A DNA stretch of 64,000 nucleotides from a virus (lineage: Duplodnaviria; Caudoviricetes), in IMG/VR virus record IMGVR_UViG_3300028833_000066; one strand, given 5' to 3'. A program made the translations under genes and the position numbers. A model generated the notes under the pieces. It did not search any database. It had not been told where the DNA came from and saw only the letters and a program-made list of their open reading frames with translations. This document shows, piece after piece, positions 27,150-64,000 of the stretch (positions within the stretch are counted from its first letter, which is position 1; every line of letters starts with the position of its first letter).

Positions 27150-28391
27150 TTATCTTGGAGGAATTATTTTATCACAGAGTTGTGGAATTGGTCCACGTTC
27201 TGACTTTAGTAATTTAACAGTGCCAAATAATGGATCACCTACTAAATTATCAAGCATAGCTTTAATGCCATTATTTTTTTCAAATTTAGGGTTATCAATC
27301 TATGCTACATCCCCACAAAATATAATTTCGCCGCCATCTTCTACGCGGCTAAGTAATAATGTAACTAATTTATCATTTAAGTTTTCACATTCATCACAAA
27401 AGATAATACCTTTTATAGAACGTCCTCTGATATGAGAAATAGGGAATATTTCAATAACACCTTCATCAATAAGCTGGTCAAGCATCATTTGACCGCCTAA
27501 ATGATCGGCAATTACTCCTCCCCACAAACTCATTTTTTGCCGCACATCACCTGGCACAAAACCAATATCTTTAGTGTCTGCAACTATAATATTATTACGA
27601 ATAAAAGTAATTTTAGGCTGGCGGCCGCGAGCTACTTGTTCTAGTGCATAATTTAGAGCTAATAATGTTTTTCCACTGCCCCAGGCAGAAGTTAATAATT
27701 TAACCTTGATATCCTAGTCTTGAAGTAAGTGCATAGCCATTTTTTGCTCTAAATTACGAGGTTTAATTACTTCACCAGTATATATATTTTTAATATCTTT
27801 ATAATTTAAAGGTTTATATTCATGTCCATCCCAGAATAATACATCTTTTAATTCATCACCTGTAAATATTTCAGCGAATGAATTAGTGGGACATTTTAAT
27901 GTATTCATTGTTGGGCACTGATATAATTGGGCCATCTGTGAATTATTAGGATAATATTTACCCCAGCCGCAATACTCTATCTATTCAATACGGCTTTCTT
28001 CTTTGTCATCTAAATATATTGCCTATAATTCCTTAATCTATTTAGCAATTAAAAACTAAGCGCCATCAGCAGTTATAAAAAATACATCATTTGAATGATT
28101 TTTTAATGCGGCAGCTTCAGCAATTAGCCAGTGGTCATGAATATCCTATAGTATTGGATATTTTCTAAATTTTTTTCTAGTATGATTATTAGCGGTAATA
28201 AAATGTATATCTCTAGATGTAATAATATCTCGCACAGCCTATCGTGCGAGATATTTTGTTTTATCATCTTTTTGCTATGAAGTTTTTATATTTTCAAGTT
28301 CCATTAATACAATAGGACTAATATATATATTCTGGAATCTTTTATAAGCCCCATTGAGTACTGCAGAAGTATCTAAAAAATTAATATTCAT
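27150..28391 (-). CDS. phoH: PIN-PhoH fusion protein (about 9 in-frame TAG)
   Basis: FLDTSAVL PIN start, AWGSGKT, IGFVPG, IRGRS, DECEN, SRV, GDVA*ID; 413-aa frame under TAG=sense. Confidence 0.88.
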
Positions 28392-32545: not shown

Positions 32546-34513
32546 TTATACATTATATAAAGATTTTATTAAAGTAGCAAAACTAGTTACAAATTCAATA
32601 TGTAATTTCATTTTTCTTGCGATAGTGGTTGGGTAGCCTTTTCTACGAAACTATTTAGGATCATTTGGTATGTTAGCATTTTTTTCTAAACGTACTGAAG
32701 CGGCACTGCTAGCAATTCCACTTTCTTTTTCTACATGATTTTGTAATGCTTGTGTTATATGTTCTTTAGTCATCTATAATATAAATGATAAAGGATAATA
32801 TTCTTGATTTAGAGCAAATAAATGAAGACGGTGTGTATCATTTGTTCTACTTGTCATTCGATTAATTTTCATTTTAATTGCACTTTCCCAAATTAAGACC
32901 TAATCATCAAATAAAAAAATTGATAAAAATGCACTTAAATAAATTAATAAATTATCTTCTAAACCTTGTGCTATTAACGTATCAAGTGTATTTGCCAAGA
33001 ACCAAGCTAAATCATTCATATTACTTGTCATACTAGTAGAATTAGGTGTTAATGTATTAGTATCTAAAGCCGTAACAATAGTACTAATTTTCTTTAACTA
33101 GTCTATTAAATTAGGGCCTAAAGATCCACCACCAAATGCAGATGAACTGCCACTCTATACCCTTTCATATGCTTTTGTAGATTCTTCAATAACAAACCAT
33201 TGTTTAACATCCTATTGGTGATTATTGAAATATTGAGATATTTTTTTTTCTAAGCCACGTAATTCACTCGCTCTATTTTTATAGTAGTCATATGTATTAG
33301 TTTTATCTAATGTATTACTATATTCTTCTAAAAATTCTTTCATTTTATTTTGGTATCTTTTAGGAATCTATGTTTGTAACCGCTAAACTGTTTTTTGTGC
33401 TTTTAAAAAGACATGCCCAATTAAAACGTCTGGTTTTCCACCTTTAGAACCAAGAACTTTTGCCGCGGCCGCACTAGCTAATTTACTATGCATTAATGCG
33501 CCCTATATTTCAGAAAATACATCTTGTCTAGAAAAATCTGCTTCTGCTTTTATTAATGCAACACTAGTTGTAATAATATTAGTAATTTGATCGTCGCTAC
33601 TTAAAGAATACTACTCAATTTTTTCTTTTGCGTGCGATAATTTATTTTTTAAATTCTATTCTTGTTCTTTTAATACTTCAATATCATGTGCTTTCCAAGG
33701 AAATCTTAGCTAAGTAATATTTAACTATTCTACTACATCCTATAATTCTTTTTCTAGCTAAGCTAAAGTATTAATTGAATGAAAAGAATTTACATCTTCT
33801 ATATAATTTGATAAATTGGCTATAAGATTTTTAGAATTACGTTCTGTAACATCAGTATGCAGTATCCATTCTTGTATCGCATTAAATATTATAGACTAAA
33901 TATACTCTGTTAATTCTAAATTATTATTTCTTAAATCTTCTATCTTCTATTTAATTGTTTCATTAACTTCTGGTCCATTTAAAGCGTCTATAATTTTCTA
34001 CTCCAATTCGTTAAAATCCACCTATTCTAGTGTATCTTTCATTATTCGTGACGATAATTGTTGTTGTTTATCACGCTAAACATGTAATGCTTGGCTTACG
34101 TCTTCTATAGAACCTACTATATTTTGCATATTTTGTAATTGATCTTTTCGCTCTCCTATAACTAGTTGAAATTGCTGCATAAAAATTTTCCAATTTTCTT
34201 CTTGTATATATGTTTTAAGTCGTGCTTGTTCATTTTTTGTTAAATCTTTATTTAATTGTTCTTGTAACATAACCATAAAACGAGCCTCTTTTCCTCGTTC
34301 AATAGTAATTGCTGCTTCTAAAAAAGCTAGAGCATTTGTTAAACGCTATGATTCCTATTCATTTGAAATATCAGTAAATTGAGTGCTAATGCTTTGAACA
34401 GATGCATTCGCATTTTTCCACATATTACTCCATAAATCATCTGCATATAAAGAAGATGTGCTATCTTTTAAATAAATATAATCTTTAAAATTATTTGGAT
34501 TGGGTTTAGCCAT
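32546..34513 (-). CDS. Large hypothetical protein, 655 aa, about 22 in-frame TAG
   Basis: Single frame from MAKPNPNNF to TAA, interrupted only by TAG in my reading. Confidence 0.75.
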
Positions 34514-34687
34514 TCTCTCACCCCCAAAACAAAAAGAAACCCGCTTTTCAGCGGGCTTCAAGATTTCTCAATTTTCTCTTCAACTTATTGATAATTCCTA
34601 TATTACCAATTTCATCGCGAGCCATTAGTAATTTAATTCTATATTCATACTTTAATTGTAGTAATTTTGTATTCATATTTTAATACC

Positions 34688-35323
34688 TCATTTCTTAATT
34701 AGTTCCCATTTATAGCCACCATATTCTTGCCCATTGATACAAGCATTAATAACTTTTTCTAGAAAAACATTTTTTCTTGGCTTATTACCAGGAAACTTAA
34801 TATCAAATAGCTGTAAATATTCTACGATTGCTCGTCCATTATATTTTAAATAAAGACGCTTATCTTTATACAGTTGTTCAAATATCTTTAGCTTATCATT
34901 AATATCTACTTCTTTTGAATAAAGAATCGCAAACTCATCTTCAATTTTTTCAATAGGTGTTTCTTCTACTACTTCAGTCGCCGCTGGCACAATATTAGTT
35001 TGTGTATATTGTGCATATTGATTATTTACTTCAATAGTGACCCAGCGTAGATTTTTAATTGAATTATCACGCTTATTACTATTAATATGGTCAACATTAT
35101 ACATAGCATTACGTTTGCCGCCCAGCCATGTATATGCGACGAGTCTATGTACCATCACAGCGCCTTTGTCTGTAAAGACAGTACAATAACCTCGTTCATT
35201 AATACGCGGATTAAGTATTTCTTTATTTTTAATTAATTTAACTCGCCCGCAAGTTGACACGTATACACCATATTCTTTATTTTTTCGCCAGCGTTCAATT
35301 GTTAGATGAATTTTTGGTAACAT
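34688..35323 (-). CDS. HNH endonuclease
   Basis: VHRLVA, VDHINSNKRDNSIKNLRWVT. Confidence 0.85.
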   Translation of the reverse strand: MLPKIHLTIERWRKNKEYGVYVSTCGRVKLIKNKEILNPRINERGYCTVFTDKGAVMVHRLVAYTWLGGKRNAMYNVDHINSNKRDNSIKNLRWVTIEVNNQYAQYTQTNIVPAATEVVEETPIEKIEDEFAILYSKEVDINDKLKIFEQLYKDKRLYLKYNGRAIVEYLQLFDIKFPGNKPRKNVFLEKVINACINGQEYGGYKWELIKK

Positions 35324-35468
35324 CTTGAAGCTCCTTTAAATAATTGTAATAGTCGTCTGCCCAATATTCTATATCTTCTTCTCCATAATCAATTCCATAA
35401 GTACCTTCTTCATGGCCTCGTTGAATTGCTAATTCATAAGCTTCATCCCATAATGCTTCGTCAAACAT
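35295..35468 (-). CDS. Small acidic protein
   Basis: GGAGG RBS and own promoter; MFDEALWDEAYE...EEDIEYWADDY. Confidence 0.55.
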   Translation of the reverse strand: MFDEALWDEAYELAIQRGHEEGTYGIDYGEEDIEYWADDYYNYLKELQDVTKNSSNN

Positions 35469-35541
35469 ATTTCCTCCTTTATTCTATAATTATTATATCA
35501 TAAATTAGAAAAAAGTCAAGGTTTTATCCTTGACTTACAAA

Positions 35542-36780
35542 TTAAACGTGATACTTTAGAAGAAAACTATTGCTTACAGCTTTAAAAGACTTAGAACCAT
35601 CAATAGAGCGGAATACAATACCTTCACGAGGCAAATTATCCAAACAAGATTTGCCTTCTGCATAAGCAAGAATAGCATCTACATTTTCAAATTGATTAAT
35701 TTTCATTTTACGATTAAGTACAGGTACGCATTCAATTCCATATGGATCTAGAATATCAATCATTTCAAGAGTTCCTACACGACCGCGAGATGAGAAAATT
35801 AGGTTAAATGCTAGAAAATCATGCTCACCGCAGAGAGAGTAATCTCGCTGCTGAATGCCGTCGCCAAAAGTTTCGCCTTGAATAGTAATCCATTCTTCAT
35901 TAGGATAAGCCGCCATCAAATTAGATAGCACTTTGAACATGTCATATTGCTTAGCCATTTCCCAATATACATTGGTATCATAATAGCATTCTTTGCTTTC
36001 TTCTCCAAAGCATACATTACGGGAACAAACATAGAAAGATTTGCGCCCAAATTTGCCACGCTTCATAGAGAAAGTAGTGCTAGTTCCATCAATCTTCTCG
36101 GTGGCAATCCAGTCACCATCATCATTTAGAATCCAAGGCATATTTTGCACTCGTTCCTCATCAGTCTTTTTTACCCAAGCCGGCCAGCCATTTTTCTTAT
36201 CCTTCTTTTTACCGAAGAAGAAGAACATTACTTTGCGGCCAAAATTACGTTTCATTATCCACTTAGCCCAAGATTTCTTGAAGATTTCAGGATGACGAGC
36301 GGCCATTTTTTTATACTTATCTACAGTAGGAGCTTTACGCTGGTTATCCTCTTCATCAGCGTAAGTAATACCAAGCTGCTTGGTTAGAAAACGAGATTCA
36401 TTTTCTATATTATGATTGTGCCCTTCATTATCTACGATATAAGGAGTATTATATCCTTCAATATGAAGTGCAGGAGCAATGTGCCAACCAAAATCTTCAG
36501 CGTGCATAAGCAAACCCTGTGAAATCGTTTTGCACATCTTCAAGGTTTTAACCTTGTAATTACGCTTTTCAAGAAATGCAAAGCACTCCTTATCAGAGGG
36601 TACGCGAGAGTCAATTTCAAAATAAATCGCGGGATCGCCAACTTTAAATTGGCCTTTCTGTACAATAACTCGCCATCCACCAACAATAGCATGCTCAACC
36701 CGATCATATCCGGGGATAGGTTCAATACCGTCAATAATTACCACGTAAGCGAGCTGCCGAATACCATCTTTATCAAGCAT
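35542..36780 (-). CDS. ATP-dependent RNA ligase (Rnl2/DRB0094-like)
   Basis: N-terminal OB-like domain, KTDEERVQN, TEKIDGTS, QGE, AFN, EGIV, FKAVSN. Confidence 0.88.
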   Translation of the reverse strand: MLDKDGIRQLAYVVIIDGIEPIPGYDRVEHAIVGGWRVIVQKGQFKVGDPAIYFEIDSRVPSDKECFAFLEKRNYKVKTLKMCKTISQGLLMHAEDFGWHIAPALHIEGYNTPYIVDNEGHNHNIENESRFLTKQLGITYADEEDNQRKAPTVDKYKKMAARHPEIFKKSWAKWIMKRNFGRKVMFFFFGKKKDKKNGWPAWVKKTDEERVQNMPWILNDDGDWIATEKIDGTSTTFSMKRGKFGRKSFYVCSRNVCFGEESKECYYDTNVYWEMAKQYDMFKVLSNLMAAYPNEEWITIQGETFGDGIQQRDYSLCGEHDFLAFNLIFSSRGRVGTLEMIDILDPYGIECVPVLNRKMKINQFENVDAILAYAEGKSCLDNLPREGIVFRSIDGSKSFKAVSNSFLLKYHV

Positions 36781-37037: not shown

Positions 37038-37297
37038 AAATCCTCACTATATAATTCACTAGTTACTAATTTAAAATCTGATACTTGACGGCATCGTTTA
37101 GCTTCTTTCATGGCGTCTAAACGACTCATATATTCATCATGCTCATTTAAGAAACCTTGTCCTAATTCTTTAAAATCTTTGATAGTGTATCCAAAATCAT
37201 GTAAAATTTGAAAAGCATCACAATGTCGATGGCATGGGATAATAATTTCTTTTTGCTGTTTATTATCAAAGATTTTAACCGCTGCTTTTGTTACCAT
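37031..37297 (-). CDS. Hypothetical phage protein
   Basis: RH..., QGFL, LYSEDLW. Confidence 0.6.
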   Translation of the reverse strand: MVTKAAVKIFDNKQQKEIIIPCHRHCDAFQILHDFGYTIKDFKELGQGFLNEHDEYMSRLDAMKEAKRCRQVSDFKLVTSELYSEDLW

Positions 37298-37526
37298 CTG
37301 GAATCTTAGCCTCCGAACTCATTTGATAATGAAAGAACTCAGTATGACTTCCAACATCATAATGCCGCCAACCATCACTATCCCAAGTGCGAGTATAATA
37401 ACTCTTGTAATTATGTTCATCAAGAAACTTCTTGATAACAATAGCAACATCAATCTTGTTGGCACAATCAGCGATAGGACGCCATATACCACGACTATTC
37501 TCAAAATACAGAGTCATATTCATCAT
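37275..37526 (-). CDS. Hypothetical phage protein
   Basis: YYTRTW, DVGSHTEFF. Confidence 0.6.
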   Translation of the reverse strand: MMNMTLYFENSRGIWRPIADCANKIDVAIVIKKFLDEHNYKSYYTRTWDSDGWRHYDVGSHTEFFHYQMSSEAKIPDGNKSSG

Positions 37527-39531: not shown

Positions 39532-40346
39532 TATATTCTCCTTAAAATAAATTGAGCATGGGTATGGTCTGTGGTAGGTAAGATAATATCTTTCCACTTT
39601 TCCGCGTAATATGGTAATAGATAATGAGTTTCAAATAAAATTTGATAATAAGGACCAGTTAATTGGAACAAATCAAACAAAGTCCATGAGAAATAATCTT
39701 CTTTCAACTCTCGCTCCCAATCATTATCTTTCCATTGATATTTCATTAAAAAATGAAGAAATCCTTTTTTCGTGAGAATTGAAGTATCATTGGCTGTTTC
39801 AAATTCTTCAATATATTGTTCATCAATATTGAATTTTTTAATAATGTCAGTCATACTTTTATAAGTAAACTTACAGTCTGGGCCATCAAAATACATATCA
39901 CGAATGGTAATGTATTTAGGTTTAAGCTCAGTAATGAGTTGCTTAATTGTTTCCTTTCCTTCAGGTGAAGAAGAAAATACTTCATGCAGTACGCAAGAAA
40001 AATTAATACAAATCTCATAATTACAAAATGTATACTTAGCCATACGAAGCATATCAGTGAATGAATCTTCAGTAAATTCAGAGGTACGATGTGTGCGGAA
40101 AAATTTAATATTGTTATGTTTAAGCAAATTTTCATTATGAGCTTTCCACGCCATATCAATTAATTCATCGTTAATATCAAAACCCCAAAATTCAATTTCA
40201 GGAAACATAACAGAGAGTGTTCGGATCATTGCTCCATCTGCGCAGCCAAAATCAATTACACATTTCGCGCCAATAATCTTATCCATGAAAAACGCTTTGT
40301 CTCACATTGATTTTGCCATTTCTTGAGTATATTTATTCAGATCCAT
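39531..40346 (-). CDS. Class I SAM-dependent methyltransferase, in-frame TGA at codon 15
   Basis: VIDFGCADG, GFDIN, SCVLHEV; RBS AAGGAG at the 40346 start; TGA at 40302. Confidence 0.7.
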
Positions 40347-41477: not shown

Positions 41478-42113
41478 ATACTCAGGCCACACTCGGGTGG
41501 TCTGTACTTAGACTATTTACCTTCGGCCTTGCCGCTCAAACATTCCCACCGCTCGCGTCCTCAATAGTCCTAGGTAGATAAACATCTACTCATTATAATA
41601 TCAATAGGATTTGTTTTGCCGCGTACGATCGGCTGGCCGAGTATTAAGTCTAATAGCCGCTCAAGACTCCTATTGATTTTTAATAAAGGCTCAAAGTACT
41701 TACTTCTTCGTTCGTGAAGAGGCCATTAGGCGAGCCTTTGTATGCCCCGAAGGTACGCTTGCTCGTCAGCAGAGGCGTCGGCAGCTCATATATTGTGGCG
41801 TAAAACCCCTAACTAGCCATCATCGCGTCCAGCTGGACCACATGTTTTCTGCCTTGAACCCGTGCTTTCAGGTAGGCAAGGATTATAATCTTGTTTAGGG
41901 AACATCCCATGGTCAAGAGAAACCATAGATGGAGAATCATAATCTAGAAGACAGTACCCTTACGGCGTGCTGTTGATTCTCCTTCTGGTGGACCCGGGGC
42001 ATTTCACCCAGCCCATAGACGGTTTTTAGACTCGCTGGTCATGGCTTACCGAGGTACTGACGGCCGATCGCCCTCTGTCGCGCCAAGACTGTGCTCATTA
42101 AACACAACCCTAA

Positions 42114-42392: not shown

Positions 42393-42803
42393 TGGTGCGG
42401 GTAGCCGGACTTGAACCGGCACGCCCAGAGGGCAACAGATTTTCTTACTACTCTATGTTACCATAGCCGCTTTCGCGTTGTAGTCTGGGCTATGTCTTCA
42501 CCTTATCTTACGACTTAGGTGGCTGGTATATAGTCTCTACACATTTATAAATATGCGACGTGCCGAGGTACTGCCCCTCTATTTTTGTATTACTTACTTA
42601 CATATACCTATCTGCAGTTTATATGTTTTCAGAGATAAGTTATTATCTGCTATCTTATACTAGACACGCCATATTTAATTTAGCTCGGCGTTATCCCATA
42701 AGGACTTTCACCGAATTAGCCAGCATTCACTCAGAAAGTTTCCTATTCTGGTGCTCTTTGTTTTACAAAAGTCTGTGGCGTCTGCCTATTCCGCCATACC
42801 CGC
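42393..42803 (-). tRNA. tRNA-Leu(UAA) split by a group I intron (exons 42769-42803 and 42393-42443)
   Basis: Joined exons give ACAGA-CTT^AAAA-TCTGT, Leu-type D arm, long variable arm, CCA. Confidence 0.9.
42444..42768 (-). mobile_element. Group I intron in tRNA-Leu(UAA)
   Basis: P AATTCGGTGAAA, Q AACGCCGAGC, R GTAGAGACTA, S AAGACATAGCCC; exon ends in U, intron ends in G. Confidence 0.9.
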
Positions 42804-45142: not shown

Positions 45143-45324
45143 ATACAAGAAGCGTATTTACGCTTCTAAATACGACTGTGTTATTACACCAAATTACTCT
45201 TACCTTTTATCCACCGCACATCATACTTATAGGACAATTCCTGTAGCCCATAATACATTTCGCACGAATGGAGGCATGTAAACTCTTTAGCTTATGGCTA
45301 CTTTCAAGCCTACAGTGTCGCGAG

Positions 45325-45711
45325 CTAGGGCGCTGGGACTCGAACCCAGACTACCTCCTTCAGAGGGATATAACGGTTTTCTTACTACTCCATATTACTA
45401 TGGCCGCCATAATGCGTTGTAGTCTGGACTATGTTTTTACCTTGCCATAATGGTTTAGGTATGTCCTATATAGTCTCTACACGTTTATAAATAATTGGCT
45501 GTTTATCAAACTCCACTTAGCTACAGCGTTATACGAACTCGCCACTATCAAATTGGCTTCCACAGTCTGTCGTAGCACCAATTATTTAATTTAGCTCGGC
45601 GTTGTCCTAGTAGGATATTCGCCGAATTAGGGACAATTCACACTAGAACTTTCGTATCTAGGTGTCCAATTATTTTAAGAGACCGGTGTTCTGCCATTGA
45701 ACTACGCCCCA
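45325..45711 (-). tRNA. Amber suppressor tRNA(CUA), Gln-like acceptor, split by a group I intron (exons 45678-45711 and 45325-45380)
   Basis: Joined exons give CCGGT-CTCT^AAA-ACCGT; acceptor TGGGGCG/CGCCCTA with G73; 23-nt variable region. Confidence 0.82.
45381..45677 (-). mobile_element. Group I intron in suppressor tRNA anticodon
   Basis: P AATTCGGCGAA, Q AACGCCGAGC, R GTAGAGACTA, S AAACATAGTCC; 3' end GAGTAGTAAG shared with the Leu intron. Confidence 0.9.
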
Positions 45712-45768
45712 TTAAAGTGAGGTTTCCCTCACTTTCTATATATATTATATCAAATTTTTTATAGAAAG

Positions 45769-46269
45769 TCAAATAAAAGCCTTATCTAAATTCATATATT
45801 CTTCTGGATTACCATTGCCGCATTCATCACACCAAGGAGCAATCCATCCACGACTTAATTTAGTAGCGGGTTTGCCACATTTAATACAAGTACGAGAACT
45901 TATAACTTCATACTTATCTACAATAGCACGAGTTCTTTCAGTACTGAAATTATCATACCATCTTAGATAGCCATACTTTTCCTTAATTTGATCAACACGA
46001 TATTCATCAAGTAATTTTTCGCCGCCTTCATCAAGTAAAGCTTGCTTAATTTCAGCGCACATTTGTTCGCCAAACGCAATACGCCATCCATCTGGCATAT
46101 CATCAAGTTCAGTATATTCATAATCCCATTCTGGCGGCATTTCATCTGGGCTATCGGGCCAAAAGCCTTTTTCACCGCAATTGATGCGTTTGCCGCTGAA
46201 GCGATTAAATGGAATTAGAAATGGATAAGTATCGCATAAACGCTTGTTTTCTTCACGATTAATTTCCAT
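45769..46269 (-). CDS. Conserved-looking phage hypothetical protein
   Basis: MPDGW, QIKEKYGYLRWY, C-terminal CxxC pairs; true start after GGAGG at 46269. Confidence 0.7.
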   Translation of the reverse strand: MEINREENKRLCDTYPFLIPFNRFSGKRINCGEKGFWPDSPDEMPPEWDYEYTELDDMPDGWRIAFGEQMCAEIKQALLDEGGEKLLDEYRVDQIKEKYGYLRWYDNFSTERTRAIVDKYEVISSRTCIKCGKPATKLSRGWIAPWCDECGNGNPEEYMNLDKAFI

Positions 46270-46289
46270 TAGTATATCCTCCTTAAAAG

Positions 46290-46478
46290 AGCCGCCGATA
46301 GGACTTGAACCTACAACCTGCGCATTACTGGAGCTGAGTGTGAGTAACGAACTCACATATCTTCGCCTAATTAATTCGTCAATTAATTAGTTCTCATGCG
46401 GTCTTTTCCCTGTGATTCGGGTGTTTTACCTTAAACTAACTCAGCAAGTGCGCTGCTCTACCATTGAGCCACGACGGC
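46290..46478 (-). tRNA. tRNA-Thr(UGU) interrupted at 34/35 by a tRNA-shaped insert (exons 46446-46478 and 46290-46328)
   Basis: Joined halves give a canonical cloverleaf with GCGCA-CTT^GTAA-TGCGC. Confidence 0.85.
46329..46445 (-). ncRNA. Nested tRNA-like element (G1 to CCA)
   Basis: Acceptor GCTGAGT/ACTCAGC-T-CCA, D arm, T arm GTGAG-TTCGTTA-CTCAC; expanded middle. Confidence 0.8.
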
Positions 46479-48642: not shown

Positions 48643-48719
48643 TGGTACTCCCCACGGGATTTGAACCCGCAAATACTTGATCCTAAATCAAGCGCGTCTG
48701 CCAATTGCGCCAAGGGAGC
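48643..48719 (-). tRNA. tRNA-Leu(UAG) with short variable loop
   Basis: Loop TTTAGGA, Leu-type D arm, A73, CCA. Confidence 0.88.
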
Positions 48720-49876: not shown

Positions 49877-50474
49877 AAGGAGATATTAGGTTAGTAAACT
49901 CTTGCGACCTTCGCCGTACTCAAGTAATTCTTCAATCATATTCAGCCACTACAGAACTAAAGGCTGAGCCATAGGTAGCGACCCTATAACTTCTTTAGTC
50001 CGCTTTCGCCATGTGTAGGAAGGATTGACTACCTTCAAGTTTCAGCCAAACCATTCAGCAATAATATATAAGAATGAACTAATTCTTTTAACATATTACT
50101 TGCCCGTCGAATTGGCCTACTCCCACCTTAAACCTCTCTTATATGCCATTTCTGGCTTTCATCAACGTCGATAGCTACTTATGGTATTTCCAGAGTTTGT
50201 ATTGGCTACCACCCCAATACCTTATCTGGATTCGGCTCGTCTATTCAACAAGCTTTCTATTATGTAGCCGAGAGGAAGAGTGCTTTTAATTGCGAACACC
50301 CAAGCGCCTATCCTTAGTATTTGGAGTTTCTCCTTTATCACCTAACATTACTGTTTCGGCGGCTGTTTAACCAAAAGTATCCTTCGGGCAGTGACAGCTA
50401 CTATACGGATAGCCCAAGCTGTGTGGTTAGCACATCTTCACTTGGTTCAAAATTTACTAACCTAATATCTCCTT
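49877..50474 (-). ncRNA. Large structured ncRNA (about 600 nt; ROOL/GOLLD class candidate)
   Basis: Ends form a 22-bp perfect stem (AAGGAGATATTAGGTTAGTAAA); own TTGACT-17-TATAAT promoter; no credible ORF. Confidence 0.7.
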
Positions 50475-50716: not shown

Positions 50717-51158
50717 TCAAAGTGCGGCCGAAACCGCAATAATCACTTACTTTCGTTGTCTTTTTATTATAGCGTGCTGCTAAATGACTAAGCCACATAT
50801 CACGTCCTCAATAATGATTCATCGTGCCGGTGGTAGTTTAGTGAGAATCCATCCTTACCGCACACTAAGTGTTTTTATCGCCAGTTTGTGGTTCCCACAT
50901 AACCCCCCAAGACTCGACTTTACACTTCATTCTGGCAAAGCATAAGCGTCATCATCTATCACATACTCTAGTTATGTGATGCTATTTTAGTATCACTTTT
51001 TTGGCATAGCTGCCTCACCACAGCTGTCGTCGCTCACGAGACGTATAAGGATTATGGAGTATAGTCTGAGAAGTTCATCTACAGACACTCCTCCCCTTAT
51101 ACCGCCGGACTTCAACCGGCCAGTCATATCCTGTCAATTCAGGCTTTATGTGGTTGAA

Positions 51159-53162: not shown

Positions 53163-53904
53163 ATAACTAGCGGTTTGATAACTCAGCCGCAACTGAGTAG
53201 GCTACACTGTGTGACGAGAGCGGTAGATGAAGCCGCTTCCTTTGCCAGTTTAGGGAGCTACCCTAAGAGCTGCCCGGGACTACCAATCCATTTTCCCTGC
53301 CTTCTCGTTTTTCACCTATTTATGGGTGCAGTTACTACTTCTGCTTCTCCCGCCCTTTTCGTGTAACTACTACTCGGGGCCGGTAAGGACGTGGCTCGTT
53401 TCCTTCCATCCCATGTGCTTACTTTGCTCTTCTTTTATTACACGCCGAGCAATCTGGTATATGCACTCGAAACCATATAGTTTGCGTATTGGCTGTTCTT
53501 CAAACTCCATTTAACCCATTCTTCCTAGCATGCGACCTAGAGCTCTTTGGCCTTAGCTTTTCAAAGCTTACACGCTAATTACGGCATTTGGGCACCTTGT
53601 AGACCATTATTGAGCGTCTTACTTTCTCTTTTTGTTACGCAGTTTTCCTCAGCGTATGTGTTCCATCCCATTTTTTGGATTTCTCCCCTCAATTTGGTGA
53701 GGATGCCGAAGAGCTTAGTTTCACACATAAAGTCCTGTCATTGCTCTATCACTCTGCCTGCCTACCAGAGTTGCAGCAGTTTGCCCCTGCTTGCCGAGAC
53801 CGCATATTTATATACCGCGAACGATGTGCGGTTACGCTCTCCGGTGGCCGCCTTTGAGCGAGGCTAGACTCTAAGTGCATCAGGGTTTATGATACCCAAG
53901 TGCC

Positions 53905-53978
53905 CGCACCGTATTCGGGAGTCGAACCCGATAAGTATCATATACCTTTTCGCCCTAGCACCAATTACGATTCGGTGC
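53905..53978 (-). ncRNA. tRNA-like RNA (acceptor and T arm only)
   Basis: GCACCG/CGGTGC; TCGGG-TTCGACT-CCCGA; no canonical D or anticodon arm. Confidence 0.55.
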
Positions 53979-56354: not shown

Positions 56355-58301
56355 TCAGCCTCCCATTTTTGCTGTCCAAGCAGCAATATTATTATTATAT
56401 ACAGCATTCTTTTTAGGAATGAACATTAATTTTGCACCATAAGCACGGTCATATTGTGTTGGATTTGCGTCACCAGCATAGCAGAATAGACCATCTTTTT
56501 CTTTAAAGGCATAGTGGCCGCCATTTAGTATCATATGTGTGCCATTAAGATTATTTATTGTCCATAAACAATCTCCAATTGGTAGAATATTATTAGCTGT
56601 ATCGGAGCATTCAATAGGCATGTATACCCAATCGTATTTTGGATTGCCATATCCAAAGGCTGAAATAAATGACTCAGAAACTGGTAGCATAAAACCAATG
56701 CTTTCATAATTATCAGTTAAAGAGACACTATAATTATAATCTGTACAAACATATGGGATACCACCTTGAGAACTTCTATTACCTACTAGTAATGCCCCAC
56801 CGACCATATGCCATATGTTGCCCCAAGGATTTTCTACTCCACGATAGCTAATAGCACGCTTACCGGCTTCAGAATAAGTAGTATAAACTCCATTAATTTC
56901 ATTAACGGTCTCAGCCGCGGCACCTGATGCGTTGCCTAATGATGCTGTTGAACCAGTAATGCTGCTACAATTGGTATTAGTAGAATTAATTTCACAAACA
57001 CCTAATTCTAATGATAACTGACCATTTGGAGAGCCATATTCAGTCATAAATAGCATTTGGTTAGCACTGTCAGCCCGCATATTAGTGATATGCCAACCTT
57101 CACCACGATTTTGAGCTAGCTACTCAGCATTAGTAATGGTAAACATATTATTTTGGCCGCTAGCTGGTTTTACACTACCAACAGAACTTAATTTATCTGC
57201 TTCAAAAGCAACACCATTTTTGTCAGTAGTTAAATATGTGCTTTCAGAAGTATCATAAATAGAGCCATCGTATGCGGGAAGTAATACATAATCTACTTCT
57301 TCTCCATCGGCATTAATGAATAATGGATGGATTTTAAAACCAGTAATTGGAGTATCGCTTAAAATTAATGATTCTTTTTTAACTATCTTTCCTAATACAG
57401 GACTATTTTGGCTATTAATTACTACTCTTTGATAATAGAACTTGGGTTGGTATACCATAACTTGTCCATTACTACCATCATCAGCATAATTAGCATCGCC
57501 ATACCAAGCAGTAATTGTGCCATTATCGGCTACATTACAACGCTTGCGGCCGCCAAACATAGCGTATTTATTATAGTCGGCACCCGGTTGTAAAATTTTA
57601 CCATCTTGTGTGCGAGTATAAACTTTATTTTCATAGTCTAATTCCATACCAACAACACCAGATAATGAATAAGCACCGGCTTTAATTAGAGCTTCAATTA
57701 CATCTGCCTCAGTAGCATTGCCAGCGGTGATATTGCCATCTGGTCCAACTACAACAATAGTTCCAGCATTGTCTATGCCTAAATTAGTGCTGCCGCCGCC
57801 ACCAGATATAGTAATATTATTAATGGCTGTTTGTAATTCTTGCTTTACGCTATTTACATAATTAGTAATAGCTTTTTGAGTCATTGTACCATTAATATTA
57901 TTGCCTGATTGCTGATACATTATTAATAAATTTTTAATAGTTGATGTATCACCTGCGGGATATGCTGTTACCAAGTTTTTAGAAATTGCTTCATTGGTCA
58001 TTGAAGTTGTTAAACTTAATGCTAATTTATCAATTTCATTATCAACTGCGGTAATATCAACGCCTGAAGAAGCTTCTTCAATATTTTCAAGAGCTTCATT
58101 GACTGCGGCTAATGCGGCATTAGCATTATCTAACGCTTCTGCCGCGGCCTCATTATTAGCATTAGTTTGCTCAGTTATTGTATCTATATTATTAATTGCA
58201 GTATTCGCATCTGCTACGGCTTTTTGTGCGAGAGCAGCATAAGTGGAAATACGCCCTTTTGGTGAAAAACCGCCACCTAAAACAACATCAATTATATCCA
58301 T
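56355..58301 (-). CDS. Tail-associated structural protein (TAG at 57120 joins two track ORFs)
   Basis: GTMTQKAIT, GQVMVYQPKFYY, YRGVENPWGN; 648 aa. Confidence 0.75.
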
Positions 58302-58306
58302 TTATC

Positions 58307-58540
58307 TCACTCTCCTTCGTCCTCTTCGCTAGAACTTGCACCGCCATAGATACGGACCCAAGTTTTATCACTTTTAGCCATATATACTTCAAGGCCGGTC
58401 GTGCCTTCTACTACTAAGGCGATCGTGCCAAGATTAATTTCAGATGGATCAATATTATCTAAATCTGCGACTGTATCGCAATAATGTTCAAATGTAATTA
58501 CATTGTCTAATGAACCGCGACGTGTCATTTTATGTGCCAT
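58307..58540 (-). CDS. Hypothetical protein
   Basis: Packed ORF upstream of tail gene. Confidence 0.6.
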   Translation of the reverse strand: MAHKMTRRGSLDNVITFEHYCDTVADLDNIDPSEINLGTIALVVEGTTGLEVYMAKSDKTWVRIYGGASSSEEDEGE

Positions 58541-58583
58541 TATTCATCACTTCCTTATAAAGTGTTTCGTGTCCTTCCATAAA

Positions 58584-58617
58584 AAATAAATGGGAAGGAC
58601 TTCTATATCCTTCCCAT
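58584..58617 (-). terminator. Terminator-like hairpin in tail region
   Basis: ATGGGAAGGA/TCCTTCCCAT followed by a T-rich tract. Confidence 0.6.
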
Positions 58618-58711
58618 AAATGTAAGTAACTTAAACTTGTTCTGTGCTATTTTCATTTACACGTTCTAAAACTACTTGGCTATTTTCAATTAGTATTATA
58701 TATTCTCAAAA

Positions 58712-59434
58712 TTACCCATTCGCATGCACAGTACGAATTAAGTATTTATCTGTCATTTGAGTTATAATTTCTTGTAAATCAGATAACATTGGTTTTGTGG
58801 CATCCATATTAACAACTGTGGCACTTGTATTGTCATTAAATGTTGTTTTCATTTCTGATAATTGATCGCTAATAGTTTGCCATGAATTTCTAGAAATAAG
58901 ATTTCCTTGAGTGGCTGTATTATCAGTAAGCTAAAAAAATGTTGAAAATTCATTTACCTTATTCGCAGTAATTAATTCTTCTGCTTCAGGAATAACTGCT
59001 CCAAATTGGACTCGTAAATTGGATACTCCATATGAACCAGTATATGTACCAGCAGACTATCTAATAGCACCTTTTATAGTTGTAGTAATTTTTAATGTTA
59101 AATGGTCACCGGGATTTACTGCTACATTTGAATCTATGTTTGCTGTAGTGTTTCCTAAATTAATGCTCACAGAATATAAACTCGTATTACCTCTTAGTAA
59201 TTGAACACTAAAAGTATGAGTCCAGGTACATCCAGTTGAAAAACTTCCCCAAGGATTCCCTAAAATTTTAATATCTGAAGCAGTAGGACTTGCAACTAGA
59301 GTTGTTGGAATATCAAATTCATATGTGCCAACAGCTGTTGTCCATGAGTTTGATGCTGAACCGCTCGAATAAACTGTACAAGTATCCATATGTCCAAAAG
59401 TAGCACAAGTATAACATATATAACATACTGCCAT
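58712..59434 (-). CDS. Tail-region hypothetical protein (2 in-frame TAG)
   Basis: 240-aa frame to TAA under read-through. Confidence 0.65.
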
Positions 59435-59435
59435 A

Positions 59436-62400
59436 TTACTTCACCCTTACCCAAATGCGGCCATCTACTTTTACGTTACTACTACCCCAAGTCTCATAAT
59501 TGGGTATTTCGCTGACATATCCTATGATACAATCTGGATATTCTCTTATTTCATCTCTTGTCATAATATCCACTGTACCATTTGGAGCTGAGCATACTGC
59601 CATACCAGCGTGATAATTTGTGCGGTCTTGATAAGTATAAACTAATACTCTTCCTGCGACGGCTACTGGCGTTTTAGCCTCATTAGTTTTGCCTTCAATA
59701 AAGCCAAAAGTATCAGAAACAATCTAGGCACCGGGGAGAAGACGCTTTGTTGCCAATGATACTGTGCCGTCATCGTTATCTATGATGACGTTGCCAGGTT
59801 TAAGGGGTTCAGCCGCACGACGATATTCAGCATAGTCATTCCAAGCAGCACCGTACAGGACTTTGTTAGTTAAATCTACATATACAGCCGCCGCACCATC
59901 TGGACGCAAACGCAATTTATCTACACCATCTTCATAAATTATATCTATAATTCCTGATGTTGAGCCGTTTGTAGCTTTAGATAATTCTATTTCTCCACCT
60001 TCGGTATTACTAATATAACTGCTTCCACGTAAATAAACACTTCCGCTATAAATTCCTCCTGTGGCAGATAGTGAGCCCTCACTAGGATTAGCATATATTT
60101 TATTATTTAAAATAGAAGTAGTATCGCCGCGAGAGGTAGTAGCTGTAACACCAGCAGTAGCACTCATAAGTAATGGATATGAATTATTAGTGGTGCTATA
60201 AGCCTGAGTAACTTTAGTATCAGAAGTTGATACAGTAGACCAACCGCCTTTTTGATTTAAGAATTTAGTTGTATCACCGGAGGAAGTATTCATTCCGCTA
60301 ATACTAATTGTGCGAGTGCCGCTTCCAGTAATTGCTCCGGTAGCATCTAGTGCGATACCGGCACCTGCGGATAATGTAATAGAAGTTACTGTTCCTGCAT
60401 TATTAGTAAATGATGCCCAAGTGCCTTTTTCAGTCAGACATTTTGACGCACTTCCGCTTGGTGACGAACCGTTAGGAGAAAATGGTTTAACTCCTCCATC
60501 TTTATACCAATAAATTGGATGTTCTGGCGTTAAAATAATTGCAGCTGTGCTATAAGCATTACCTAATTTAATATAAATAAATCCATCATCTGATGTTGGC
60601 AATGTTTGTGTAATAGGTCCTGCGTTTGCTCCTGTGGCGGTTGCCGCAGCATTAGTACCAGTCGCTCCTGGGTTACGTAATTTTGCAGTTAAGCCGCCAG
60701 CCTATAATGTAGCGACTAGATATACATCTTTACCAGCGGTTAAAGTAGTGCCAGTGTTAAATGAATAACGTAAATCTACGTCACTTCGCATTTGCCAATG
60801 ATAACGTCCATCAATATTTCCAGCAGCACTAACAGTGCCAGTAGTACTATAATATTCTATAGGTCTAGTAATATCAAATTCTTCAGTTGTAATAGTAGTC
60901 ATAGCCGTAGAAAATGGATGACTAGTATTATTTTGAATATCACTAGTATTAGCAGGAATAACTTGAATACCATCTTTATGCGGCAATAAAAGTTTATATC
61001 TGTATAATGCTGCAGTAGTTTTACGATAAGCCGCATTCTGCATTTGTCGCATATAACCTGCTGTATCATTGCTATTGCCGCTATCATAATAATTAACTAC
61101 ACGCCAACAACCTACGCCAGGAATATTAGTTGTGTTACTACTGGCACGAGAAGTAGCGGGGGTTACTGGCGGAAATAGACTGGTAATTGTGCCATCTGCA
61201 TCATATACTAAAGTAACTATTGAATCGACAGGATATTGTCCAGTTAATCTTGTCGTACTGCCATTAATACCAACTGCTCTATATGTTGTCCCGTTATCTA
61301 ATGAAATATATGTTCCGTAGTCATGACTGGCTACAGGAACTCTAATTGTAATTTTGTCTCCATCATTTGGTGTCGCGATGCCAAGATTAAATTTCCAAAG
61401 GGCTCCAGTATAGCCATTTGTGCCATTACCTGCAGCCGCGGTCCCAGTTCCTTTTAAAATTGTGCCACGATAGAAGAGACCAGAATTGATATATTGAATA
61501 GAGGCGTTTTCTGGAATAGTATTTGCGGGCGTACCTATAAATGCAAGTTTTCCATTAAATGCACTATCTCCATTAACTAGTAATTTATAAGTATTCTATG
61601 TTACGGGTGAATTTAACTAAAACATACCATTAATATTAAATCTGCCCTTTTCATGTGAAGTATCAGCTCCACCACTAGTAAAAATGATACTCGCTGATGT
61701 TGGTTTATTTATATACAGAGTATTTCCTGATGTTAAATATAAAACACCGGAACCACTATTCGTTGCTGTACTAATATTAATATCTGCTGCTCCACCAGGA
61801 GACGTAATATATAAATGTTTTCCGCTAGTATTTGATTGCACAGTAACATTAGCATCTGTGGCTCCAACTACTTTAAGTCCAGTAGAAGTTAGTGTTTGTG
61901 TTGTGCCAGTTGAGACTATTACACAATTATTAGTAAATGAAGTAACACCAGTGCCGCCATGTGCAACTGCTACTGTACCAGTGACATTAGTGGCATTACC
62001 GCTTAATGTACCAGTAATTGTATAACCACCAGTAATTGTTTTAGCATAAGGGTCAATTACTAATGGTGTTCCACTTCCAGTTTTTGTAGTACCATCAGCT
62101 GATGCAATACCAAAAATTCTTAACTAGCTATTTAACTAATCAAGAACAATACCCGCCTATGTTGTATTAGCTGTTGAAGCACAAAGCTATAATTGGCCGC
62201 CTTCTCCAGATTCTGGTTTAAGTGACAACGTATTCGTTAATGTTCCAACAGATGTAATACTTGATAAATTTTTCGTGGTTATAATAGTATATCCTACATT
62301 AGCAGTACGTCCTACAGTAGCCGCTGGTAAACTAAACGTTTCATGAAAACCAGAAGTTCCTGTATCAGCAGTTGATTTAGGACACCACTAACGAAAATTA

Positions 62401-62903
62401 TACTAACCAGTAGTAACATTATCAGCATTTCCACTATTATAATAAATTTCTCCAACTTGCGTTTTTGACTTATTATAAATATATACGTCTAGACACCATT
62501 GGTTATTACCATATATATATGTATATCCAGCAGTATAAAGTGATTTCCATCTATTTGACGCACTACCTAGTGTTAATGTATTGTCTTTAGGATTTAATGC
62601 CCCTGTTGACAAAACCATACCTTCAGTAGAGTTGCCAGTTGCTCCACCGGGACGCATTATAATGTTTCCTGTAGTGTACAATCCTAAAGAAGTAGAAGTG
62701 CCTATATGTGCATTAATTGTATCATCATTTGTTAAATTAATGCCAACGGTAGTTGATGAAGCATCTGTTCCAGAAGTATTAATTTTTAATAAATTAGTTT
62801 CTAGATTACTGGCATTTAATACACTAGTATCTACTTCATTCGCATAGAGGGTATCAGTAACCCTAGCACTTCCCTAAATAAGTGTATCTTTTAAAGTAGC
62901 GAT
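59436..62903 (-). CDS. Tail fibre protein (about 1155 aa, multiple in-frame TAG)
   Basis: G/S/T-rich beta repeats, VAHGGTG, C-terminal WNDYAEY...PVAVAGRV; track fragments share one frame. Confidence 0.78.
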
Positions 62904-62918
62904 AAGTCATCACCCTCC

Positions 62919-64000
62919 TTAACGTTCTATAAATTGCGTTGCATTAACGCTAAACATTTTTTTATTTAATTGCGCAGGTTTATTTAAATCTTCTTCTACT
63001 TCTGTAAAATGAGAAGATTTAAATACTCCTGTCTTTTTTAATTGCGGCTTAAAGTTAGTATCAACTAAATACCACTATAAATGTCGCACCTTCCATGTAA
63101 CTGGACTAGACTATCCATTAGTTACTAATCCTAAACTTGAATAATCTCTAATTGGCAAATGATTTGTATTACCATTATTTGTATTTGAAGCGCCACGATA
63201 GATGCGCGTCCATGTATTTGCGGGAATACTAATTACGGAAGCTAAGCGCGTACCTGTTGCATCGTTATCATTACCTGCCCAGTTCGTATCAGAATTTCCT
63301 GTCGTGTTATTATAATCTGTATTTACACTTAATGCAACTGGCGTCCATACTTCCGCTGTCCAACGATACGTTGCACCATAAGGCACCCAAAGTGGCGGGT
63401 CGTCAGCGAGACGAACACCATATCCCCAAGAAGAAGTATCCGCTTTAGAAACTATCGTATAAGTATCAGTCGCAGTATCATATGTAACAGAATTCGCGCT
63501 ATTATTTATGAATTTCGCGTTCGGCACCACGTTAGCCGTTTCTTCTAATTCAAATGGATGCATATTTGCTTTTTTATCCACCTTCATACCTACATTATAC
63601 AACTATTTTATGTCTGTGTCAAGTAATGGAGTGCAATAGATTCTAAAATCACTCATTAGTCCCGTATAAGAAGTGGCATCTCCACGTGTATCTCTAGCAA
63701 TACGTAAATTACCGCTAAAAGTTTTATCATTAAAGGTATTAGTAAATGTATCTTTTAACTCGCCATTATAATAGCAATACACTTTAGTTTTATCTTCACT
63801 TTTTACAACAGCAATATGTTGCCAAACTCCATCAGTAATGGTTAAAGAAGAAGTTGTTAAATCTGGAGAGCCATTCCAATAGAAACGCAGTTTATTTCCT
63901 GCAGTCTTTTCTATACTACAACTTGTACCATTATAACTCGCGGCATAAATACTACGGCCGCCGTTTTCGCCGGAGGGCTTAATCCAAAAACTATATGTAA
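62919..64000 (-). CDS. LamG/lectin-like tail protein, 5' end outside window (in-frame TAG)
   Basis: FWIKP, WQHIAVV, YYNGEL, GLMSDFRIYCTPL. Confidence 0.72.

Follow-up and report, generated by a model that had tools for sequence, protein, structure and literature searches.

The 64,000-nt stretch of phage DNA analyzed here (the window) includes, on its minus strand, a tRNA gene with a CUA anticodon that is interrupted inside the anticodon itself. This arrangement raises the question of whether removal of the intron acts as a timed switch of the genetic code or whether the intron is a passenger in a gene that the phage uses to read TAG codons, and also of how such a tRNA could be charged. The window covers a portion of the genome of a large rumen phage, nearly all genes of which are on the minus strand, and its sequence is present in sheep and cattle gut runs. 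The genomes of relatives are 160-190 kb in size, from which we estimate that about 110 kb of this genome lies outside the window. Besides the ROOL and drum RNAs there are 22 plain tRNAs in the window. The tRNA region includes, all on the minus strand, the ROOL RNA (49885-50469), the drum RNA (50864-50957), and a cow-rumen-3-like RNA (41987-42110) that scores 72 bits, below the cut-off.

Structure of the split gene and decoding of TAG

Exon 1 (45711-45678, 34 nt, ending CCGGTCTCT) contributes tRNA positions 1-35, which comprise the 5′ strand of the acceptor, a 4-bp D arm, and the 5′ half of the CUA anticodon arm, and is identical in the intronless locus L168. It is followed by a 297-nt IC3-like group I intron without an ORF (45677-45381, terminal G at 45381), the boundaries of which were defined from empty alleles, and by exon 2 (45380-45325, 56 nt, beginning AAAACCGT), which runs from A36 to G73 at 45325 and does not encode CCA. 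When joined at 35/36 the exons give a 90-nt tRNA with a cloverleaf in which CUA is found in the 7-nt anticodon loop CU-CUA-AA. The proposal of the first-pass annotation that a group I intron splits a tRNA(CUA) at 35/36 is confirmed by the core elements, the empty alleles, and covariation. tRNA scans of the window found no other CUA tRNA, as had been stated, and the suspicion that standard scans could miss the gene was correct: plain ARAGORN misses it, and with introns allowed the program miscalls it as Leu(aag). Relaxed ARAGORN searches gave many false intron calls, which were left out of the counts, and three loose DNA search patterns returned mostly chance matches.

A putative promoter of the extended -10 sigma70/sigmaA type (TTGACT-17-TATAAT with TG, 11 of 12 consensus matches) is located 33 nt 5′ of the tRNA, at 45744..45772 on the minus strand. 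The window has 26 promoter sites of the extended -10 class, many of which precede TAG-free replication genes. These promoters, together with a contig of one Bacillota MAG that carries the same tRNA, indicate that the host of the phage is likely a member of the Bacillota.

Reading TAG as sense increased the coding fraction of the minus strand from 0.58 to 0.78. The residues found in relatives opposite masked TAG codons were glutamine in 54 of 112 cases, serine in three, and tyrosine in one; glutamine was the commonest in seven sequences and there was a tie in the complete genome G008. Judged from these alignments, TAG is a glutamine codon in this phage, with in-frame TAG read as in genetic code 15. 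The primase-, helicase-, and gyrase-like genes, which were named by eye from their translations, are TAG-free, and TAG is found in genes for PhoH, endonucleases, a glycosyltransferase, and tail proteins. An example of a client gene is PIN-PhoH (27150..28391, minus strand), which has nine in-frame TAG codons. A tail protein gene and more putative virion genes (56355..63782, minus strand) contain 1, 2, 10, and 3; within this segment a PHROG tail match was obtained for 56355-58301 only. A Gln-rich ORF of 671 amino acids (32546-34561, minus strand) includes 22 TAG, 29 CAA, and 1 CAG codons; it had no Pfam or PHROG match, and no homolog was found in the relatives G001 or G002 at E 1e-20.

The acceptor had been described as resembling that of the window tRNA-Gln. 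This likeness holds for U1-A72, G3-C70, and G73, but the pair 2:71 is G-U, and the mature tRNA does not have a plain tRNA-Gln body: 23 nt lie between the anticodon stem and the T stem, where tRNA-Gln has a short variable loop. The pair U1-A72 is not kept among relatives, which have mostly A1-C72 or A1-U72. The label tRNA-Pyl given by ARAGORN was rejected on the basis of the long extra arm, the 4-5 bp anticodon stem, and the reading of TAG as Gln; tRNA-Pyl is characterized by a very short variable loop, a 6-bp anticodon stem, and a PylRS system. A supD-like suppressor of the tRNA-Ser type was also rejected, since the first pair is U1-A72 and not G1-C72 and serine is opposite TAG three times compared to 54 for glutamine. 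The serine or tyrosine identity that a long arm would in general suggest is contradicted by the TAG alignment and the acceptor features.

The group I intron and its splice site

The elements P, Q, R, and S and the terminal G ascribed to the 297-nt intron in the first-pass annotation are all present. The internal guide GGA (45665..45667) forms U35·G, C34-G, and U33-A, with the U·G pair of P1 at the 5′ splice site. Also on the minus strand are P2, the 5′ strand of P3, and elements P and Q (P4/P5) at 45594..45664, a P6 extension at 45489..45587 that holds a 79-nt cargo (45577-45499), and elements R and S with P7, the 3′ strand of P3, and P8 at 45426..45482; helix P2 and the catalytic core P3-P4-P6-P7-P8 are both in place. 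Across ten suppressor introns P3 forms 5-6 of its 6 pairs with differing sequences and P7 covaries, that of G008 being complete as read by eye. A cmscan search with the group I model RF00028, a check suggested with the first-pass annotation, gave a match of 46 bits (E 1.1e-10). This is slightly short of the gathering score of 50, a cut-off that shorter sister introns in the suppressor site exceed (67.2, 56, and 50.5 bits for L409, L436, and L117, respectively). The alignment carries an 81-nt insert in P6, to which we attribute the sub-threshold score since the structural features of the intron are in place.

The P6 cargo is related to the P6 insert of the Leu intron of G006 (score of 56.5, the best of 1000 shuffles being 43) and had no match in GenBank phages. 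A 26-nt motif with three differences is common to 45494-45519, in the cargo, and to 53488-53513 of the window, which is located in a long non-coding stretch retained in G001 and G002; the cargo may derive from RNA of that stretch. The summed RNA contig depth in run X5 was very high at 45531, a hint only.

A related group I intron of 325 nt interrupts the tRNA-Leu(UAA) gene of the window (42393..42803, minus strand) at 34/35. It has a different, 140-nt P6 insert, and its P7 includes an A·C mismatch (position 42489) that is absent from many contigs of relatives. The pairings of guide and exon reported earlier, GGA with UCU in the suppressor and GAG with CUU in the Leu intron, were both found. 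The idea that the suppressor intron was retargeted from its sister Leu intron was not borne out: its core is 74-77% identical to Leu introns, which are of the Leu.3Ug type, the corresponding range for suppressor introns that other phages carry in this lineage being 70-78%, and the intron tree is compatible with a direction from Leu to suppressor and with the reverse. Introns at 35/36 have reportedly been observed in tRNA-Asn and tRNA-Asp of Patescibacteria. The bacterial tRNA group I introns described in the available part of Williams (2020), where the window Leu intron corresponds to the Leu.3Ug case, share with the suppressor intron a U at -1, a terminal G, a short P1, a P/Q/R/S core, and an ORF-less form of 170-330 nt; they differ in that here the intron is in a phage stop-codon suppressor and at 35/36, which is site 4 there. 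The same part lists Leu.3Ug as IC3, and our designation IC3-like denotes this resemblance only. By itself, the intron can be considered a known kind of element in a new kind of site.

The first-pass annotation had warned that the guide could also pair for cleavage after U33, which would give a non-functional 5-nt loop. In 13 intronless viral loci and in the phAss-1 Sup2 gene CCGGTCTCT runs straight into AAAACCGT across the joint, and the intronless L168 differs from the spliced product at only 1 of 90 nt. In ten introns the three bases of the P1 extension pair in 22 of 30 instances if cleavage follows U35, as compared to 3 of 30 if it follows U33. The window copy is the weakest case, with 1 of 3 paired, and its P1 taken alone is more stable in the U33 register (-1.4 as opposed to +0.9 kcal/mol); with the anticodon stem formed (+3.1 kcal/mol) the order of the registers reverses to U35. 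The Anabaena intron requires the anticodon stem, according to the part of PMC3895272 available, which cites Zaug 1993. The empty-site alleles, the covariation of the P1 extension, and the anticodon-stem requirement make 35/36 a well-supported prediction of the splice site, and the first two largely answer the caveat about U33.

That the window copy is mis-spliced after U33 or dead, with another suppressor of the genome or of the host working in its place, seems to us very improbable. A 4-bp P1 can form after U33 in this copy, but such a cut would use U31 and G30, which belong to the anticodon stem that these introns need (available part of PMC3895272, citing Zaug 1993). The base at +1 forms U·U in the 35/36 register; however, both exons are at most 1 nt away from an intronless gene and the core helices are intact. 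Most of the genome, the estimated 110 kb, is outside the window, and phAss-1 is described as having three suppressors in the part of PMC10607447 available, but each complete relative has one CUA tRNA. Sheep-rumen metatranscriptome contigs match the locus, some of them at 100%. The exon-exon joint is absent among the RNA-contig joints listed, and it is a joint that intronless relatives would yield in identical form. The summed RNA contig depth is far higher in the intron than in the flanking ORFs, a sum in which contigs of related introns are pooled and which reflects neither level nor strand.

A second anticodon arm and the charging of the suppressor

In place of a variable loop the tRNA has a second anticodon arm (45354..45370, minus strand), which cmscan aligns to the anticodon arm of the model. 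Its 7-nt loop, CU-CUG-AA (45365-45359), includes the Gln anticodon CUG at 45363-45361. A plain type II variable arm, our first reading of this region, was set aside after the arms of related genes were compared. Sixteen of 23 distinct arms, a set drawn by a pattern blind to the extra-arm region, have a stem-closed loop of 7 nt with CUG or UUG at its center and A37, while shuffles gave an expectation of 0.38, and all eight distinct arms of intron-split genes have a Gln-type second loop. Watson-Crick pairs close the loop at both of the first two positions in 22 of 22 arms, the second position showing four pair types, and CUG and UUG swap among arms; the phages concerned are related, and their arms do not count as independent cases. 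The strict rule for a Gln loop excludes seven of the 23 long arms; L467, L478, L484, and L486 do not pass it, yet on inspection by eye CUG is present in their loop region. The long arm is absent in 21 of 47 CUA tRNAs. A nearest-neighbor model favors a 5-nt loop for the extra arm (-28.7 versus -25.1), contrary to the covariation. Since only 4 nt separate the second arm from the T stem, the 3′ part of the molecule looks like half of an ordinary tRNA-Gln(CUG) with the CUA arm placed in front. At the level of sequence comparison, covariation shows the second arm to be an anticodon-arm structure with a Gln loop, and both arms of the spliced window tRNA recur in phAss-1 Sup2 (88 nt). One long-arm CUA tRNA (L498) has an extra hairpin in which the 7-nt loop has a central CCA and not CUG.

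A chance find, a single case, serves as control. In the phage G016 the coding density increases from 0.55 to 0.80 with TGA as sense, and tryptophan is opposite TGA in 39 of 73 cases. Its opal suppressor tRNA(UCA) (L508, 1213-1515) is split at 34/35 by a 207-nt intron that has group I motifs and the guide GAG and gave no match to RF00028. The extra-arm loop of this tRNA is CU-CCA-AC, a Trp loop in the same place as the Gln loop.

The window tRNA combines U1-A72, G73, and U35, and G73 with a weak 1:72 pair is in line with known Gln determinants (PMC9976931). It could be argued that the intron is a passenger but that the extra arm is an ordinary one, Gln identity being due to U35, G73, and the weak 1:72 pair only. 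Amber suppressors of E. coli that derive from tRNA-Ser, -Trp, -Asn, or -fMet and combine U35 and G73 with a weakened 1:72 pair indeed insert glutamine, and they have one anticodon arm (PMC9976931), whereas the window tRNA presents the cognate anticodon in a second. Long-arm genes have G73 in 26 of 26 cases and lack G1-C72 in 25 of 26, and short-arm CUA tRNAs are common. An ordinary arm, however, leaves unexplained the conserved 7-nt loop with CUG or UUG and A37, the compensatory changes in the stem, and the switch to CCA in the TGA-to-Trp phage, and for this reading we hold out little hope.

We favor instead a second arm that may act as a synthetase-docking decoy, presenting to the host enzyme the Gln anticodon that the CUA arm does not offer. 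In five near-complete relatives a search that covered two synthetase families detected neither GlnRS/GluRS nor a class IIa synthetase, and a release factor was not found either; in the one Bacillota MAG that has such a tRNA on a phage-like contig, which may be incomplete, no glnS was found above the cut-off. Candidates for the host machinery would be GlnRS, or a non-discriminating GluRS plus GatCAB. A broader proposal, toward which we lean slightly, is that a two-anticodon tRNA solves the charging problem, one arm reading the stop codon and the other showing the cognate anticodon, and that introns hide some of these genes. It would cover CUG/UUG for Gln, CCA for Trp, and perhaps docking in the anticodon position, as well as an intron endonuclease translatable only after splicing and suppressor build-up.

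Mobility of the intron and the question of timing

In G001, a relative with 87% identity across 46 kb, no intron interrupts the suppressor gene found at the corresponding place, and in G002, which is 85% identical, the suppressor site holds a different intron, one of 173 nt. The number of TAG codons in PhoH is 9, 9, and 6 in the window, G001, and G002, respectively, the glycosyltransferase gene has seven in both the window and G001, and TAG accounts for 0.17-0.25 of the Gln codons with the intron and 0.19-0.29 without. We found 10 distinct intron-bearing and 28 intronless long-arm genes (10 of about 38), a ratio that is rough since the two counts were obtained with differing search patterns. 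The introns at the suppressor site belong to two lineages with 53-61% identity to each other. The intron of L098 has an intact 163-amino acid HNH ORF (PF01844) with one in-frame TAG at codon 14, in that of L003 the HNH ORF is frameshifted, the window copy has no endonuclease ORF and so lacks this feature of a homing intron, and L168 is empty, a series of invasion, decay, and loss at one site that is shared with mobile group I introns (PMC3984707). HNH genes of this family are also found free-standing beside tRNA genes (L098, 4381-4869; L508-L513), in L510 and L511 directly after a CUA tRNA. A tRNA-fMet intron endonuclease was described by Bonocora and Shub (2001), as cited in the available part of PMC3984707, and the accessible text of Borges et al. 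(10.1101/2021.08.26.457843) mentions an intron endonuclease gene of Agate phages that contains TGA. The L098 endonuclease would differ from those of other mobile introns in needing the tRNA that its own intron interrupts.

Other tRNA genes of these phages (Leu, Thr, and Pro) also have interruptions. The tRNA-Thr(UGU) gene of the window (46289-46478, minus strand) is interrupted after G35 by a 117-nt insert (46444-46328) that is itself tRNA-like, with acceptor stem, D arm, and T arm, and resembles the nested-tRNA Thr(TGT) intron of Lak phages (PMC6784885, in the part available). The joint 46328-46445 is in RNA contigs of runs X3 and X5 and absent from the DNA run X1, weak evidence given that one side spans only 28 nt and that the corresponding Thr gene of G001 lacks an intron. 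A tRNA-Thr(GGU)-like gene of G002 (35024-35582) carries an insert of about 490 nt with an endonuclease-like ORF, and tRNA-Pro genes of G002 (39616-39749) and G001 (37289-37422) have their anticodon loop interrupted by about 55 nt of tRNA-like sequence; the window copies lack both inserts. G008 has four more group I intron matches, outside scan-called tRNA genes (80154-85221 and 155365-155667). The window also includes, on the minus strand, a 77-nt tRNA with a UAG (Leu) anticodon yet a short variable loop (48643-48719) and a tRNA-like stretch with a T arm, an anticodon arm that is not clear, and a weak tRNA-Sec match only (53906-53978). Lak phages likewise have patchy introns in phage tRNA genes (Devoto 2019, PMC6784885); the accessible part of that report considers them enigmatic and unclassified, and names Tyr and Thr tRNAs but not a suppressor.

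The first-pass annotation took self-splicing to time the decoding of TAG as Gln and hence late gene expression. This was not supported: TAG is recoded alike in close and distant relatives whose copy of this tRNA has no intron, and the intron family is patchy, occurs with HNH genes, and is also in tRNA-Leu, where gating would be needless. An evolved gate, in which slow or regulated folding of the intron delays the supply of suppressor and with it late-gene expression, is in our opinion quite unlikely. The suppressor promoter is of the same class as those preceding TAG-free replication genes, as a consequence of which any delay would be post-transcriptional, but intronless relatives share the promoter class, the site, and the TAG pattern. 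Over 10 bp the 3′ strand of P6 (45498-45489) is complementary to the guide region (45675-45666), and in RNAfold calculations on the window copy the guide pairs with it at 0.73, and natively at 0.10. This competing helix, however, needs the P6 extension, which seven other measured suppressor introns lack (14-31 nt, compared to 111 nt), the ensemble difference is about 1 kcal/mol, and the model omits the P3/P7 pseudoknot and tertiary contacts. Ligand-controlled group I splicing does exist in C. difficile (PMC3984707), where a c-di-GMP-type aptamer controls the choice of splice site, but no aptamer or riboswitch Rfam match was obtained in 45300-45730. Two lineages have colonized the site, which would suit a gate, as would the dependence of G008 on the split gene: G008 is recoded, with five TAG codons in its terminase gene, and ARAGORN, RF00005, and a motif scan detected no CUA tRNA besides the split gene. 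Splicing would thus be obligatory for decoding, a required step and not a dedicated timer.

We consider it likely that the locus is a phage gene for a TAG-decoding tRNA that tolerates a mobile group I intron, with charging assisted by the second arm. The pre-tRNA would be transcribed from its own promoter by the host polymerase of the sigmaA type, as its match to the consensus suggests. It would self-splice after U35, at a site that rests on comparison and by a chemistry that we infer, with the anticodon stem holding the 3-bp P1 in place, as it does in the tRNA-Leu intron of Anabaena. Host enzymes would then trim the RNA and add CCA. The CUA arm of the 90-nt product would read UAG, and acceptance of the tRNA by the host Gln machinery is probably due to the second arm with CU-CUG-AA in combination with G73 and the weak 1:72 pair, so that genes with in-frame TAG would be read through as Gln, as the alignments show. 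Relatives would spread the intron by means of the HNH endonuclease, which the window copy lacks, and the intron would persist because a suppressor remains functional only if the intron is spliced out, or lost, exactly.

Suppressor tRNAs with CUA are known from code-15 phages, namely crAss-like phages, Lak phages, and phAss-1 (10.1101/2021.08.26.457843; PMC7886860; PMC6784885; PMC10607447), which share with this phage the use of TAG as Gln concentrated in virion genes and the lack of a detected phage synthetase. In their available parts these papers report neither a group I intron in a suppressor nor a second anticodon arm, and a literature search that covered few subscription papers found no intron-split and no two-anticodon suppressor. 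According to the accessible text of Borges et al. (10.1101/2021.08.26.457843), suppressors were found in only 40% of TAG-recoded phages, a question on which intron-split genes that are missed or miscalled bear. The intron makes the code change depend on a ribozyme, to which the comparison of relatives gives no role in timing. The second arm bears on the question, left open by the same authors, of how host synthetases charge these suppressors, and a correspondence between the second-arm triplet and the reassigned amino acid would provide a new rule for the design of suppressor tRNAs.
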